Source: a virus
Strand: one strand, 5' to 3'
UHGV virus genome: UHGV-0124904
DNA length: 14,033 nt
Shown: piece after piece, positions 7,231-14,033 of the stretch
How the letters are laid out: each line of letters begins with the position of its first letter
Position numbering within the stretch: the first letter of the stretch is position 1
Program-made: the position numbers and the translations under genes
The notes under the pieces: generated by a model
Seen by the model: the letters and a program-made list of their open reading frames with translations, nothing else
Databases searched by the model: none
Told to the model about the DNA's origin: nothing

Positions 7231-7728
7231 TCATTTGCGCTTTTTAAGAAATTCATCCAGTGGATCGGCCTCAGCCGGGCCTTTAGCGCCAACCTTGGAC
7301 CGGCTGGCCGGGGTCATGCCGAATTCAGCGAGCATTGCCCTGATGCGCTTCCACGCATCGGCTTTCATTACTGCCGCCGGGTGCGGCTTAATCATCCTGA
7401 TTTCCCGCTCTTTCCCTTCGTCCGGTTCATCCTCGCTGTAGACGGCGTAGGTGTAACCTTCCCGCTCTAACGTCTCGCAGTGATTCCGGTACTCTGTGTA
7501 AGCCTCGATCAGCAGTTCAAGTGCTTTACCGTCCAGGGTGGTCATCACCCCGACAGCATCAAGCTCTTCGCCAATTCGCTTAAACCAGTACTTCCCCATC
7601 TTGTCGAAATGCTTCGGAACTGGGGGGACCCCAGAAGCGGGTTTTGGCTCGTCTTTGTTGACAGCTCGTTTTGATGGGTTCCCCTTCACCAAAGCCAGAT
7701 GTGTCGGGGTTTTCGGTGGTCCTGGCAT
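7231..7728 (-). CDS. Terminase small subunit (P27-family-like)
   Basis: 165 aa, Pro/Lys-rich N-terminus and C-terminal EFGMTPASRSK motif typical of P27-type small terminases; ends 3 nt before the TerL start; AGGAG 9 nt upstream of the ATG. Confidence 0.8.
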   Translation of the reverse strand: MPGPPKTPTHLALVKGNPSKRAVNKDEPKPASGVPPVPKHFDKMGKYWFKRIGEELDAVGVMTTLDGKALELLIEAYTEYRNHCETLEREGYTYAVYSEDEPDEGKEREIRMIKPHPAAVMKADAWKRIRAMLAEFGMTPASRSKVGAKGPAEADPLDEFLKKRK

Positions 7729-7920: not shown

Positions 7921-8121
7921 TCAGTCGAGGTGAAAGTCATCGCTGAGGTTGCGCCGCCGCGCGCTGCTGGCATTGTGCGGGCAGGCGCTGGAGTTATGGC
8001 CTGACTGGCCGTAGTAACCGCAGCGCAGGTTCGCACGGCGGGCTGAGCCTCCCCATGTCTTTGGGCAATTTGCTACGGTGTGCAGCGTCGAGCCGCAGTA
8101 GGTGCAACGCGTATAGCTCAT
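7921..8121 (-). CDS. Small tandem zinc-knuckle-like (CCHC) protein, function unknown
   Basis: 66-aa ORF with ATGA overlap onto the HNH stop. Unit 1 CTYCGSTLHTVANCP fits C-x2-C-x4-H-x4-C; unit 2 CGYYGQSGHNSSACP has the same spacing with Tyr replacing the second Cys. Confidence 0.5.
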   Translation of the reverse strand: MSYTRCTYCGSTLHTVANCPKTWGGSARRANLRCGYYGQSGHNSSACPHNASSARRRNLSDDFHLD

Positions 8122-8468
8122 CGGGTTCTCTCCGTTGCGGTCTTGCGCTTATGGCATGGCCAGCACAGCGATTCGAGGTTGCTGTCGTCGTCTGTCCCGC
8201 CGTGAGCTCTCGGGATAATGTGGTCCACCGTTTCCGCTGGGCGTGGTCTGCTGTTGCGCAGGCACTGCTGGCAGATGTGTCGATCACGCTTAAGGATGCG
8301 GGCACGGATGATGTCCCACTTACTGCCGTAGCCACGCTGGTGGCGGCTCAGGCCGCGCTGATGCTGCTGCCACCCTTCGTTACGGTGGGTTTCGCAGTAG
8401 CCAGAACGATCCGTAGTTGTGCCAGAGCAACCTCGCTTACGGCATGCTCTGGGAATAGCTGCGGGCAT
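8118..8468 (-). CDS. HNH endonuclease (packaging-associated)
   Basis: 116 aa; N-terminal Cys cluster (CRKRGCSG...YCETH) and HNH core VDHIIPRAHGGTDDDSNLESLCWPCHKRKT; located just upstream of TerS as in HK97-like cos phages. Confidence 0.9.
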   Translation of the reverse strand: MPAAIPRACRKRGCSGTTTDRSGYCETHRNEGWQQHQRGLSRHQRGYGSKWDIIRARILKRDRHICQQCLRNSRPRPAETVDHIIPRAHGGTDDDSNLESLCWPCHKRKTATERTR

Positions 8469-8480
8469 GGTTGTCGCTCC

Positions 8481-8510
8481 AAAAAAAAGCCACCAGCAGA
8501 TGCCAGTGGC
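8481..8510 (-). terminator. Intrinsic terminator downstream of the 88-aa orphan gene
   Basis: Hairpin GCCAC(8489-8493)...GTGGC(8506-8510) with a 12-nt loop, followed on the minus strand by T8 (plus A8 at 8481-8488). Confidence 0.5.
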
Positions 8511-8532
8511 TATTGTTCAAACCTGTTACTTT

Positions 8533-8980: not shown

Positions 8981-9006
8981 AATAAAAAACCGCACGTAGG
9001 CGGTTT
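8981..9006 (-). terminator. Intrinsic terminator downstream of the 71-aa orphan gene
   Basis: 7-bp stem AAACCGC(8987-8993) / ACGTAG / GCGGTTT(9000-9006); minus strand continues TTTATT; 8 nt after the gene stop at 9014. Confidence 0.6.
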
Positions 9007-11099: not shown

Positions 11100-11135
11100 A
11101 AATGCAAAAAAGCCCTGGCAGATGCCAAGGCTTGA
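11100..11135 (-). terminator. Intrinsic terminator between the accessory operon and the lysis cassette
   Basis: Stem AGCCcTGGC(11111-11119) / AGAT / GCCAaGGCT(11124-11132) with one mismatch; minus strand continues TTTTTTGCATTT. Confidence 0.65.
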
Positions 11136-11162: not shown

Positions 11163-11588
11163 TTAAGCTGCAGAGGAAACAGTTGGAACGCAGTACTTTT
11201 GGTAATAATTTTTTATTACTGGCCTAACATGAGGTGACAGATTGAACCCACCCAGGATGCGTTGAAACGTTCCTTCGCTGCAAGGATCATGAATTCGTAT
11301 GTCCCCAGCACTGACTCGCTGGATAACCGAATCAGCACCAAAAATTTCTGCTCGCCTATAAAAGACATAACTTGGATGCCGAACAAAAGGATGATCACCA
11401 ACATTCAACAGACAAGAAGAGTCGGGTTCGATTCCGTCAGCTATAGAGGTTAAATTAACGGCAAGGAAAGATTCTTTTGCAAGTTTGGGATAAAATACGG
11501 GGTCGTTACAAATGAAGAACAAATGCTCCTTCGAACCAGAAAGGAGCATAATCGTGCCTTTTTGTACTGGGCTGAAGTCCGCTGTCAT
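11163..11588 (-). CDS. Hypothetical protein, candidate toxin/effector partner of the Panacea-domain gene
   Basis: 141 aa; ATGA start/stop overlap with the upstream Panacea-domain gene; GC-poor; no family recognised. Internal Met14 is an alternative start. Confidence 0.6.
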   Translation of the reverse strand: MTADFSPVQKGTIMLLSGSKEHLFFICNDPVFYPKLAKESFLAVNLTSIADGIEPDSSCLLNVGDHPFVRHPSYVFYRRAEIFGADSVIQRVSAGDIRIHDPCSEGTFQRILGGFNLSPHVRPVIKNYYQKYCVPTVSSAA

Positions 11589-12160
11589 TTCAATCCGTAA
11601 GCAATTGAATCTAGTTCGGAGAATTCTCTCATCCTGTCAGATAAATGTCTAACAAGTTCTTCAGGTTTTCCAAGCGCCCGGAACACATTTTCAGGATTTA
11701 TTGTAAACGCACCGCCACGTGGATCGGTCCATTCAGGACATTTTGAATGGGTATAATCCCTGATCTCCCATTTACTCATCTTACCGAAGCTTGCATAGAC
11801 GGCATCTAGAATTGAAATCTCAGCCTCACTGAGTTCATCTAAATCATCACGACTTAAGCTGTCACATAAAAGCTTAAGCTCATAATTGTCAGCATCAGAA
11901 ATCCAATTTTTCCAACCTTCTTCGCCCGTTTCTGTACCATTCATGAGGTCTAAAGAACGAGATAAGACTGGACCATGCGGCATGGCCACCATGCGGTCAC
12001 CTGTGATAGGCTCACCGAAACGGTCCATTGATTCTCTATCAGAGAGGTACATCAATTTCATGAGCTTAAGGTATGGCATGCGTCCACCGCCTTTCGACAG
12101 TAGATAGGCGGCCATCTGAGCCACTCTTTCTTCGCAAAACATATTAGCCCCCCTACTCAT
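11585..12160 (-). CDS. Panacea (DUF4065)-domain protein, likely PanA/SocA-type antitoxin
   Basis: Hallmark LKLMKLMYLSDRESMDRFGEPITGDRMVAMPHGPVLSRSL (K-L-x-K-L-x-Y...G-x-P-I...GPV pattern) plus a C-terminal ...W...DYTHS..PEW segment. Probable true start is Met7 (ATG at 12142..12140, AGGGGGG 6 nt upstream), giving 185 aa. Confidence 0.7.
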   Translation of the reverse strand: MSRGANMFCEERVAQMAAYLLSKGGGRMPYLKLMKLMYLSDRESMDRFGEPITGDRMVAMPHGPVLSRSLDLMNGTETGEEGWKNWISDADNYELKLLCDSLSRDDLDELSEAEISILDAVYASFGKMSKWEIRDYTHSKCPEWTDPRGGAFTINPENVFRALGKPEELVRHLSDRMREFSELDSIAYGLK

Positions 12161-12337
12161 ATACGATCACTACTACTATCAGCAGTATAGTCTTCAACTT
12201 AATTTTCTGTTTTCCAAATTACGCCGAATGCAAAATTTCTCTTGACTCTCTCCAAGCTCTTGCCTGGCCTAGCTTTGATGATTGTCAATACACGTTGCAT
12301 TACTAACGAGCGTCTTTGTACCACAATCATACACGTT

Positions 12338-12487
12338 TAATCCACAGGCATCTGTGGATAACCATTTGAACAAGCGTCGATCCTTATCCACAGAAACTGG
12401 AAATATCCACAGAGAGCAGCACTAAAAACAAAACTACCAATAACTCAAGGGGAAAAGCTGTGCATAAACACACCTCACTTATACACA
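12338..12487. promoter_or_regulatory. Cluster of DnaA-box consensus sites (TTATNCACA)
   Basis: Perfect 9/9 matches at 12353-12361 (minus, TTATCCACA), 12384-12392 (plus, TTATCCACA), 12459-12467 (minus, TTATGCACA) and 12479-12487 (plus, TTATACACA); 8/9 matches at 12338-12346 and 12403-12411. Includes palindrome TCCACAG-GCAT-CTGTGGA at 12341-12358. Confidence 0.6.
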
Positions 12488-12663
12488 TATGCACAATTTT
12501 GGGCTAAAAGAATTTTTGTTCGGTTTTGCCTATTGATAAATATTGCAAAAATTTAGCTCACAATTTCTTAAATCCTTTGCGTTCTAATAATTCATAAGCG
12601 AGGAAAAGTAACTTTTCTCTAAAAATCAGAGGAAGGGATTTTCAAGATGTACTGTTATTTACC

Positions 12664-12698
12664 AAATAAAAAAACCCGCTCAGGGCGGGCTTTTTAAC
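12664..12698. terminator. Bidirectional intrinsic terminator downstream of the Q-position gene (tR'-like for the minus strand)
   Basis: Stem CCCGC(12675-12679) / TCAGG / GCGGG(12685-12689), flanked by A8 on one side (12667-12674) and T5 on the other (12691-12695), so a U-run follows the hairpin on either strand. Confidence 0.7.
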
Positions 12699-12782
12699 TG
12701 TGAACATACAATGCCCATCGTTAACGTTAAATTTACACAAAAACGGCAACATTGCAAGTAACGTGAACCGAAAATATGAGAT

Positions 12783-13616
12783 TTAGAGCAAACTTTGCAC
12801 GCTGGTTACTTTCTTGAGTTCGGTATCTGCGTTGCTCTCCTCCTGAAAGCATTTCGTCACCAGACTTTCATAAAACGGCTTCCAGCTGTATCGCCAGGTA
12901 CGATCAGGAAGGCTGTCCAGTTCGGCCAGAACGCCGCGATACGCTACTGATGATTTCGGTCTGCTGTATCCTCGCCCCTCACAGCGTTTGCACTCCTTAT
13001 AAACCGGCGCGCCCTGCAACTCAGTTTGCTTTCGGTCGAGGGTTTGACCAGATCCGCCACACTGGCAGCGCTTACTGATCTGGCCGGTTCCGTTGCACTT
13101 GCCGCACAGCTGGTGGTCCACATCCTTTACCTCGCGGAAAACTTCAAAATCAGATGGAGACTGGCCCAGATCCTTGGCAAATTGAGGCAGGCGCATCGTG
13201 TAATGGCTTTTGGTGATCACACTGGTTCTGGTAATGAAGCCCTTGCCCCGGCATTTCTGGCAATTGATACTGTCAGCAGCTGATGAGGCGTAATCCTTGA
13301 ATGCGAATCTGGCGAGGATCCGCATACAGAGAGGGAATTTTTTGCCAGCTGCTTTACGTACGGCCATTGGTGCGTGCTGCTTGGCGTATTCTGTCAGCCA
13401 GTTGATAGCGGCTTCTTTATCCTGTGGGCTGATGCCAGCCTTCCCCAGATACATGGCAAGACCGATCCCGGCGTCGGCTTGGGTCATGCCCAGCGCCGCC
13501 ATGATGTCGGTTACCGTTAACTGATCGCCCGCGGTTGCGCGCACGCTATCAGAGATGTGCATCCCTTTCGGTGCAAAAAACTTTAAAACTCCGTCCAGAT
13601 TCATAGCGTTCTCCAC
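12783..13616 (-). CDS. Putative late-gene antiterminator (Q-position protein) with DnaJ-type CxxCxGxG zinc-finger repeats
   Basis: 277 aa with CQKCRGKG, CGKCNGTG, CQCGGSG and CKRCEGRG repeats. Assigned mainly by position (after a nin-region-like nuclease, before a terminator and the lysis genes); sequence-level identity to Q was not verified. Confidence 0.45.
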   Translation of the reverse strand: MENAMNLDGVLKFFAPKGMHISDSVRATAGDQLTVTDIMAALGMTQADAGIGLAMYLGKAGISPQDKEAAINWLTEYAKQHAPMAVRKAAGKKFPLCMRILARFAFKDYASSAADSINCQKCRGKGFITRTSVITKSHYTMRLPQFAKDLGQSPSDFEVFREVKDVDHQLCGKCNGTGQISKRCQCGGSGQTLDRKQTELQGAPVYKECKRCEGRGYSRPKSSVAYRGVLAELDSLPDRTWRYSWKPFYESLVTKCFQEESNADTELKKVTSVQSLL

Positions 13617-13621
13617 TCCGT

Positions 13622-13945
13622 CTACGCCAGTGCGCCGATGGCCAGCGCCCGGTCTAATGTTTTCAACAGCAGCTCCGGCTGCGTGCCGTACTTCGCTTCA
13701 AATGCCACAGCGTCAGCGTGCAATTCGTCGTGATGCTCTCTGCACAGAGGTATCACAAACAGGTCGTGTGCCTTTGTACCCATTCCACCCTGCCCGTGGC
13801 CAATCAGGTGGTGGGGGTCGTCAGCTTGCTTGTTACAGCAGACGCACGGCTGGGCCTTAACCCATCTCGTGTATTTCTCATTCACCCAGCGGCGACGCTT
13901 GGGTTTAAGCATGAAGGATTCCGGCGTCTCTGGGTCAACCTTCAT
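13622..13945 (-). CDS. YbcO/NinG-like small Cys/His-rich putative nuclease (nin-region protein)
   Basis: PCVCCNKQ...HHLIGHGQGGMGTKAHDLFVIPLCREHHDELH resembles the YbcO-family motif as recalled. Track start is a GTG at 13951; an ATG lies at 13945. The frame stays open to the window edge (14033), so the true start may lie outside the window. Confidence 0.5.
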   Translation of the reverse strand: MKVDPETPESFMLKPKRRRWVNEKYTRWVKAQPCVCCNKQADDPHHLIGHGQGGMGTKAHDLFVIPLCREHHDELHADAVAFEAKYGTQPELLLKTLDRALAIGALA

Positions 13946-14033
13946 TGCCACTATCTTTTTCGCTTTCTCCTGTACCAGTTGTTTGGCGGGTAATGCCGGA
14001 ACAATATCGCTTTCACGTGTTACCGACTGGTGG

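Follow-up and report, generated by a model that had tools for sequence, protein, structure and literature searches.

A Q-lambda-family late antiterminator of the phi80-like long form and its candidate pR'/tR' cassette in the viral genome UHGV-0124904

The Q gene and its family

We analysed a stretch of 14,033 nucleotides of the viral genome UHGV-0124904 (hereafter the window), in which an open reading frame (ORF) of the minus strand, at 12783–13604, codes for a cysteine-rich protein and is followed by a compact set of promoter-like, pause-like and terminator-like sequences. We hold it highly probable, at about 90%, that this ORF encodes a late antiterminator of the Q-lambda family, in the long form found in phage phi80, and that it is accompanied by its own cassette: a late promoter (pR'), a Q-binding element (QBE), a pause element and a terminator (tR'). 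A first reading made by a model from the sequence alone (the original prediction) had already placed the protein at the position of a late antiterminator Q, and in this it was right: the gene order, all on the minus strand, runs from a DUF968/HNH gene to Q and then to the lysis and packaging genes, and the family assignment given below agrees.

The listed ORF, 12783–13616 on the minus strand, with a GTG start and 277 amino acids, is a real one, but its length was counted from GTG 13616. We place the start of Q at ATG 13604 because the resulting N-terminus, MNLDGVLKF, lines up from its first residue with those of lambda Q (MRLESVAKF) and phi80 Q (MNLESIAKY), because a GGAG stands 6 nt 5' of this ATG, and because the identical gene, which has a metagenome scaffold among its locations, is called as 273 amino acids on two public contigs. 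The protein is thus 273 residues long, and its stop codon occupies 12783–12785. Its nearest homologues are found in Leclercia (95% identity), Atlantibacter (88%) and the Klebsiella phage Kp4866-6 (74%). At the DNA level, a megablast of 12160–13700 against phage records and complete E. coli genomes returned no match; judged by its sequence, the element does not belong to the sequenced coliphages.

The protein matches the Pfam family PF03589 “Antitermination protein Q” with 153.2 bits, for a cut-off of 26.7 (expectation value, E, 2e-45), and over its whole length phrog_127, “anti-termination protein Q-like” (1.8e-94). PF03589 is the Q-lambda family, separate from those of Q21 (PF06530) and Q82 (PF06323) (Yin et al. 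2022, PMC9388147), and neither of the two latter is among its Pfam matches at E ≤0.1. The proposal of a divergent Q family or of a different regulator is therefore not retained. Nor is the protein refractory to alignment with lambda Q, as had been claimed: a phmmer search of the PDB brings out lambda Q (7ubm_Q) at E 1.7e-43, residues 1–120 and 179–267 corresponding to lambda residues 1–123 and 117–206.

The fold tells the same story. An AlphaFold2 (AF2) model, built on 35 homologues and with a mean predicted local distance difference test score (pLDDT) of 80, was compared with known structures by Foldseek: the only matches with E <1 are lambda Q chains, and the match to the full-length, NusA-engaged chain 7ubn_Q has an E of 2.5e-13 and a template modelling (TM) score of 0.73. 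All the parts of lambda Q are matched, i.e. the N-terminal segment that forms the nozzle of the RNA exit channel, the four-helix helix-turn-helix body and the C-terminal helix. Lambda residues V6, G39, E134, L202 and T206, which are important for function (PMC9388147), are all identical in the protein, the last three being E195, L263 and T267 in its own numbering.

Cysteine motifs, arm and predicted second ribbon

Four motifs of the CxxCxGxG type had been noticed in the protein. All four stand where they were said to be, but the third is in fact a CxC. In the 273-residue numbering, and on the minus strand of the window, they are CQKCRGKG (residues 115–122, 13239–13262), CGKCNGTG (167–174, 13083–13106), CQCGGSG (180–186, 13047–13067) and CKRCEGRG (205–212, 12969–12992). 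The eight cysteines and seven of the motif glycines are invariant in 35 homologues that share 41–88% identity with the protein; with 8/8 cysteines invariant, the motifs cannot be due to chance.

Lambda Q itself holds two such motifs, CRDCHGTG and CGRCKGVG. In a MAFFT alignment they coincide with motifs 3 and 4, equally spaced by 22 residues, so that C180, C182, C205 and C208 align with lambda C118, C121, C144 and C147. In lambda these motifs hold the zinc of the “arm”, a zinc ribbon formed by residues 114–152, whose tip contacts QBE positions 11–13 and the repositioned region 4 of sigma (PMC9388147), and whose base contacts the zinc-binding domain of the beta' subunit of RNA polymerase (PMC9388147 or its preprint). 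The equivalent segment of the window, at 12969–13067 (minus), comprises motif 3, a hairpin with the tip TELQG, and motif 4. The tip reads QTELQG against KTELWG in lambda, where it contains E134. Hence we propose that a four-cysteine zinc-ribbon arm with a T-E-L-x-G tip is present in this Q, its zinc binding being predicted from these residues.

That there are four motifs instead of the two of lambda Q is due to an insertion, also present in phi80 Q. In the multiple alignment residues ~113–178 (13071–13268, minus), about 65 extra residues, have no lambda counterpart; they are located at the base of the arm and consist of motif 1, a hairpin of ~44 residues, motif 2 and a short linker. In the AF2 model the 44 residues between motifs 1 and 2 form a single long beta hairpin, with strands 123–135 and 154–166 and a short, helical tip carrying SPSDFE. 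As this predicted hairpin brings motifs 1 and 2 together, we infer two tandem zinc ribbons, one made of motifs 1 and 2 and the other of motifs 3 and 4. The insertion would thus form a second ribbon at the base of the arm, and each monomer would carry two zinc ions. In the PDB copy that was searched no solved structure covers the insertion, all the matching structures being of the short lambda form, and in the literature collection that was searched no paper on the structural role of a second ribbon was found.

The hairpin tip (residues 132–154, 13143–13211, KSHYTMRLPQFAKDLGQSPSDFE) hardly differs in homologues from Yersinia and Lelliottia, whose overall identity is only ~50%, and is replaced by a shorter, unrelated loop in those of Photorhabdus and Xenorhabdus. 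Such conservation in a part of the family suggests that the tip could be a contact surface for some partner.

The putative late-promoter cassette downstream of Q

Between the stop codon of Q and position 12668 the minus strand displays, in order, the elements expected of a late promoter unit. The first is a pR'-like -35 hexamer, TTGCAA, at 12752–12757, conserved at ≥0.8 in 53 distinct relatives; the annotated -35 of phi80 pR' is TTGCAT. A spacer of 16 bp, TGTTGCCGTTTTTGTG, separates it from the pR'-like -10 hexamer TAAATT (12730–12735), identical to that of lambda pR'. The original prediction had seen both the TTGCAA and an AT-rich -10-like segment, and both are there. We regard this promoter as a putative weak sigma-70 promoter, identified by homology and conservation since a generic sigma-70 scan does not call it.

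Within the spacer, a candidate Q-binding element extends over 12736–12750: GTTGCCG (12744–12750), then TTTTTGTG, with a run of TTTTT directly after GTTGCCG. Nearly all its columns are conserved at ≥0.9 in the 53 distinct relatives, and it is kept in Serratia, where the protein has 45% identity. We propose GTTGCCG as the Q site because of this conservation and because the phi80 record marks the gp17(Q) site at the equivalent position; the binding of Q to it is thus a prediction.

Next comes an element that had been overlooked, the 9-mer AACGATGGG at 12714–12722, made of a -10-like AACGAT and a discriminator-like GGG. It is identical to lambda +1 to +9 and is found once in the window, for 0.10 copies expected by chance. 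In lambda pR', AACGAT (+1 to +6) and GGG constitute the sigma-70-dependent pause-inducing element, the polymerase pausing at +16 (Strobel & Roberts 2014, PMC4005639). By analogy, the promoter-proximal pause, where Q would be loaded, is predicted at +16/+17, i.e. 12706–12707 (PMC4005639), and transcription would start at 12722 or 1 nt before. Positions of the leader are counted here from the first A of AACGAT. In this numbering G8, T17 and G18 fit what we take to be the consensus of the elemental pause, G(-10) Y(-1) G(+1), at the predicted pause.

The cassette ends with a tR'-like intrinsic terminator at 12668–12695, whose G+C core stem (12675–12689, +34 to +48) is extended by A/T pairs and followed by a T run (12668–12674) ending at +55. 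The strong terminator originally placed at 12664–12698 is recovered by the terminator scan as a minus-strand hairpin at 12669–12695 with a T tail, and the 59-nt leader folds with -20.8 kcal/mol (z -3.5). The terminator is symmetric (A tract, G+C stem, T tract) and is detected by the scan on the plus strand as well (12675–12689), so that it could stop transcription both ways. The predicted terminated leader RNA thus covers 12668–12722, ~55 nt. The earlier view of a unit like pR'/tR' with a very short leader agrees with the lambda TAAATT, with the exact pause element and with a terminator ending at +55. No CII site like that of lambda paQ (TTGC-N6-TTGC) was found in or near Q, or elsewhere in the window.

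Conservation of the cassette among relatives

The comparative set contains 92 related loci from genomes and viral contigs; 83 of them carry the four Cys motifs, and the exact 44-bp pattern TTGCAA-N16-TAAATT-N7-AACGATGGG occurs in 33. Column conservation, computed on 53 distinct sequences aligned at the pause element, is 0.8–1.0 in nearly all columns from -37 to +29, which exceeds that of the adjacent Q coding sequence with its third-position wobble. It then varies between ~0.4 and 0.9 across the terminator and lies at ~0.3 after +56. The core TTGCAA..GTTGCCGTTTT...AACGATGGG is retained even in the Serratia relatives with a Q only 45% identical; more distant relatives have other -10-like hexamers in place of AACGAT, for example AATCAT, AATTAT or AATGAT.

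Leaders measure 52–68 nt (median 56) in 54 of the 57 distinct loci with AACGATGGG, so that the short leader is a property of the whole subgroup and not an oddity of the window. At the position of the terminator we found at least three unrelated hairpin sequences. When 42 leaders were aligned and folded with RNAalifold, the first nine columns were invariant and the only structure predicted was the terminator stem, with 8 pairs of which 4 show compensatory changes. A conserved 5' hairpin, suggested by the fold of the single sequence, was not supported by the fold of the alignment and was rejected.

Some close relatives depart from the pattern. Five of them (L010, L022, L033, L035 and L064) carry variants of AACGAT, namely AATAAT, AACAAT, AAAGAT and AATGAT, and in L010 and L064 no terminator is evident within the ~130 nt displayed. 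Variants of the latter type may be decaying prophages or may have altered pause strengths. We also observed a database protein, P0053 (320 amino acids, “phage endolysin [Escherichia coli]”), that joins a PF00182 domain and a PF03589 segment 68% identical to Q, probably as an artefact of gene fusion or frameshift in another prophage.

Comparison with phi80 and lambda

The closest known system is that of phi80. Its Q (gp17, [quoted passage not shown]) has 269 amino acids against 273 and is 39% identical over the full length; it shares the four Cys motifs, including the CxC of the third, and has PSDWE at the hairpin tip where the protein of the window has PSDFE. The phi80 record gives a -35 TTGCAT, the gp17(Q) site 2 nt later (TCGCGGA, AAAAA), a -10 TAGATT, 7 nt, then AACGCTGGG. 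The layout is thus common to both: a G+C-rich Q site 2 nt after the -35, a run of A5 or T5, a 7-nt gap, AACG[CA]TGGG, and a terminator within ~75 nt. The details differ, since the Q site is TCGCGGA in phi80 and GTTGCCG in the window, the -35/-10 spacer is 17 bp in the former and 16 bp in the latter, and the phi80 terminator, at about +46 to +74, leaves a leader of ~74 nt against ~55 nt. Besides, the surrounding phage is unrelated to phi80: its head module, which comes with HNH and terminase genes, is of the HK97 type, and a Panacea-domain gene pair separates tR' from its lysis genes. A study by Guo and Roberts (2004), listed among the references of PMC9388147, reportedly dealt with the regions by which the Q proteins of lambda and phi80 bind DNA.

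With lambda, the protein shares the family PF03589, the fold, the nozzle N-terminus, the helix-turn-helix body and the arm tip, and the cassette shares an identical -10 and an identical pause element. The lambda pR' record reads TTGACT, 17 bp, TAAATT, 6 nt, AACGATGGG, and the sequence of its spacer, where the QBE lies, differs from that of the window. Lambda Q has 207 amino acids and a single ribbon; the Q described here is ~65 residues longer and has two more Cys motifs, at the arm base, which in lambda makes the contact with the zinc-binding domain of beta'. The lambda leader, 6S RNA, is 194 nt long, and on the lambda sequence the terminator lies near +190, far from the ~55 nt of the present leader.

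Proposed mechanism

From these likenesses we propose the following scheme. By homology with lambda, RNA polymerase would start at ~12722 (PMC9388147, PMC4005639); region 2 of sigma-70 would then capture the non-template AACGAT and the complex would pause near +16/+17 (12707/12706). Without Q, transcription would terminate at +50 to +55 and the short RNA would be released. Q, made from the early rightward transcript, would bind the spacer element by its helix-turn-helix and its arm, and contact region 4 of sigma and the polymerase in the paused complex. With NusA, the N-terminus of Q would refold into a nozzle that encloses the nascent RNA. The 5' end of the lambda RNA threads through the nozzle by 15–16 nt (PMC9388147), so that a terminator hairpin starting at +34 is compatible with such a mechanism. 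The modified polymerase would read through the terminator 12668–12695 and through four further minus-strand terminator-like sites, expressing first the Panacea-domain pair and afterwards the genes for lysis, HNH, terminase, portal, protease and capsid. All these genes lie on the minus strand.

Alternative explanations

Several points weigh against our interpretation. On the protein side, motif 3 is, as in phi80 Q, a CxC and not a CxxC, and the pairing of the motifs around zinc (1+2, 3+4) was derived from secondary structure rather than from coordinates. On the DNA side, the promoter escapes the generic sigma-70 scan: by our own count it fits 8 of the 12 consensus positions, with a 16-bp spacer, for a threshold of 9. 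Furthermore, the seven nucleotides that separate the -10 from the pause element (12723–12729) are TAACGTT, where most close relatives have TGACGTT and lambda has TGACTC. In the latter two the final T of TAAATT completes TTGAC, a -35-like site for region 4 of sigma during the loading of Q; by one G-to-A change the window has TTAACG instead, and this loss of TTGAC might lower the efficiency of Q loading. Lastly, the gap of 7 nt from the -10 to AACGAT, for 6 in lambda, means that the start site and the pause could shift by one.

The alternative that survives best does not concern Q but its leader: the ~55-nt RNA might also be a trans-acting small regulatory RNA (sRNA) in the lysogen. It would then resemble StxS, the RNA made from pR' of the Shiga toxin (Stx) phage. 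In Stx phages pR' is constitutively active in the lysogen, and the short RNA made from it is an sRNA that depends on Hfq (PMC7547250). StxS is a short RNA that starts at a constitutive late promoter and stops at tR' immediately behind the Q gene (PMC7547250), and the leader of the window would be of this kind. The leader terminates in a strong hairpin and a U tail, the usual end for the binding of Hfq, and the conservation goes past the 9-nt pause element: from +10 to +29 (CATTGTATGTTCA..GTTAA) most columns are at ≥0.9. However, the conserved part from +10 to +18 can be explained by the requirements of the pause site, and the alignment fold predicts no conserved structure besides the terminator. 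The leader has no sequence relationship with StxS and belongs to no Rfam family. Searches of the whole window at the gathering threshold, and of 12100–12900 and 12640–12790 at a permissive E, gave no match reaching the gathering score: STnc100/PasD, like IsrK a known sRNA family of sites adjoining prophage Q genes, is absent from the matches, and the sub-threshold ones rest on the terminator alone, such as isrK with 19.3 bits for 50. A regulatory role in trans thus seems rather improbable to us.

Another explanation is that the cassette is a decaying remnant, in a cryptic prophage, and has ceased to turn on the late genes efficiently, its promoter being weak and its site for region 4 of sigma damaged. 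The failure of the promoter scan and the TTAACG found in place of the TTGAC of most close relatives and of lambda would both fit, and the five relatives with mutated pause elements, two of them with no evident terminator, are examples of the same kind. Against it, the Q ORF is intact and has every invariant residue; the pause element, the -10, the candidate QBE and the terminator are all intact too, and the window contains full-length ORFs for lysis, terminase, portal, protease and capsid. Moreover the Cronobacter-type subgroup (L052–L061, L066) likewise does without TTGAC, with TTAATC instead. Decay is in our opinion a decidedly unlikely account of the cassette, and we keep to that of a Q-lambda antiterminator with its cognate late promoter.

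There remains the likeness to DnaJ, to which the original prediction had attributed the repeats rather than to lambda Q. It is real but, as judged from profile matches, shallow. The Pfam family DnaJ_CXXCXGXG (PF00684) covers residues 167–214, i.e. motifs 2–4 only, at E 3.3e-07 and with 30.9 bits, below the cut-off of 32.7. Neither a J-domain family nor the DnaJ C-terminal domain appears among the Pfam matches at E ≤0.1, and against the NCBIfam equivalog of DnaJ, whose cut-off is 377, the protein reaches 24.5 bits. No confident match to a non-antiterminator family, which the original prediction had named as a refutation, was obtained. The cysteine-rich domain of DnaJ/Hsp40 and the Q protein have in common four motifs of the CxxCxGxG type. 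However, DnaJ also has a J domain and substrate-binding domains that Q is devoid of, the motifs of Q sit inside a Q-lambda body, and Q, unlike DnaJ, has a 44-residue hairpin between motifs 1 and 2. In DnaJ, the zinc pairing is nested (1+4, 2+3), while that proposed for Q is tandem. A DnaJ-like chaperone or some other cysteine-rich regulator sitting in the Q position, with late control left to something else, is effectively refuted, for all that NCBI names one Q homologue “molecular chaperone”: residues 1–120 and 179–267 are lambda Q in sequence and fold, the CxxCxGxG motif is native to lambda Q, and a cognate lambda-type pause element lies directly downstream of the gene.

Other genes of the window

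The DUF968/HNH-type gene located 5' of Q (13622–14033, minus) is cut by the end of the window. As its frame is open to 14032 and as it has 329 amino acids on the identical contigs (L095, L096), the listed 109-residue ORF with a GTG start is not the real gene.

Downstream of the terminator, 12161–12667 is an AT-rich segment of ~500 bp (33–42% G+C) that extends to the Panacea-domain gene; no ORF of ≥60 amino acids, no tRNA and no Rfam match was found in it, and its content is entirely different between otherwise close relatives. The tRNA scan found none, so that Q is not followed by a cluster of tRNA genes as it is in Stx phages.

A low-G+C insert (~40–48%) of two genes follows at 11163–12160 (minus), between tR' and the lysis genes: one codes for a 191-residue protein with a SocA/Panacea domain (PF13274, 2.3e-26), the other, which overlaps it by 4 nt, for a protein of 141 amino acids (phrog_19071). 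It looks like a toxin-antitoxin or defence insert of the Panacea type, under the read-through of the late promoter. Terminator-like sites were found on the minus strand between genes at 11110–11133 (a strong hairpin, after the Panacea insert), 8987–9006, 8488–8511 and 2080–2097; to express the genes past these four sites, a processive read-through would be needed.

Further on, in the segments 8118–8468 and 7231–7728 (both minus), a small HNH-type protein (116 amino acids, with Cys/His motifs) is encoded just upstream of the genes of the small and large terminase subunits. Judged from the translation only, this arrangement would be the one typical of HK97-like cos packaging modules.

Spread of the long form and implications

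When 50,697 phage records were searched in translation, 250 proved to have this Q gene. From an even sample of 40 of these, about half are long (747–831 nt), such as those of SfV, mEp237, Stx2c phages, Salmonella SE1, SPN3UB and a number of Klebsiella prophages; the remainder have the size of lambda Q (618 nt), like those of lambda itself, P22, HK97 and HK022. The long form is present in phi80, SfV, mEp237 and hundreds of prophages. It is conceivable, although we lean against it, that the extra ribbon of the phi80-type Q imposes on RNA polymerase and DNA a docking geometry unlike that of the solved lambda complexes. If this were true, each monomer would bind two zinc ions, the Q site would occupy a different position, abutting the -35, and a terminator starting only ~33 nt from the start site would be tolerated. 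The solved matches are all of the short form, and for an extension of the nozzle model to the phi80-type Q it would be desirable to have the second predicted ribbon resolved.

The names given in databases to the related proteins are “antitermination protein” and, in one case, that of a chaperone. CxxCxGxG motifs are native to Q-lambda proteins and should not prompt a “chaperone” annotation, as has happened for at least one entry. A formerly puzzling “DnaJ-like” ORF is hereby placed in the best-understood family of phage antiterminators, its putative promoter, pause and terminator being annotated to the base. The switch itself is of an already-known type in the control of prophage late genes, which a phi80-type Q with its cognate cassette now joins.

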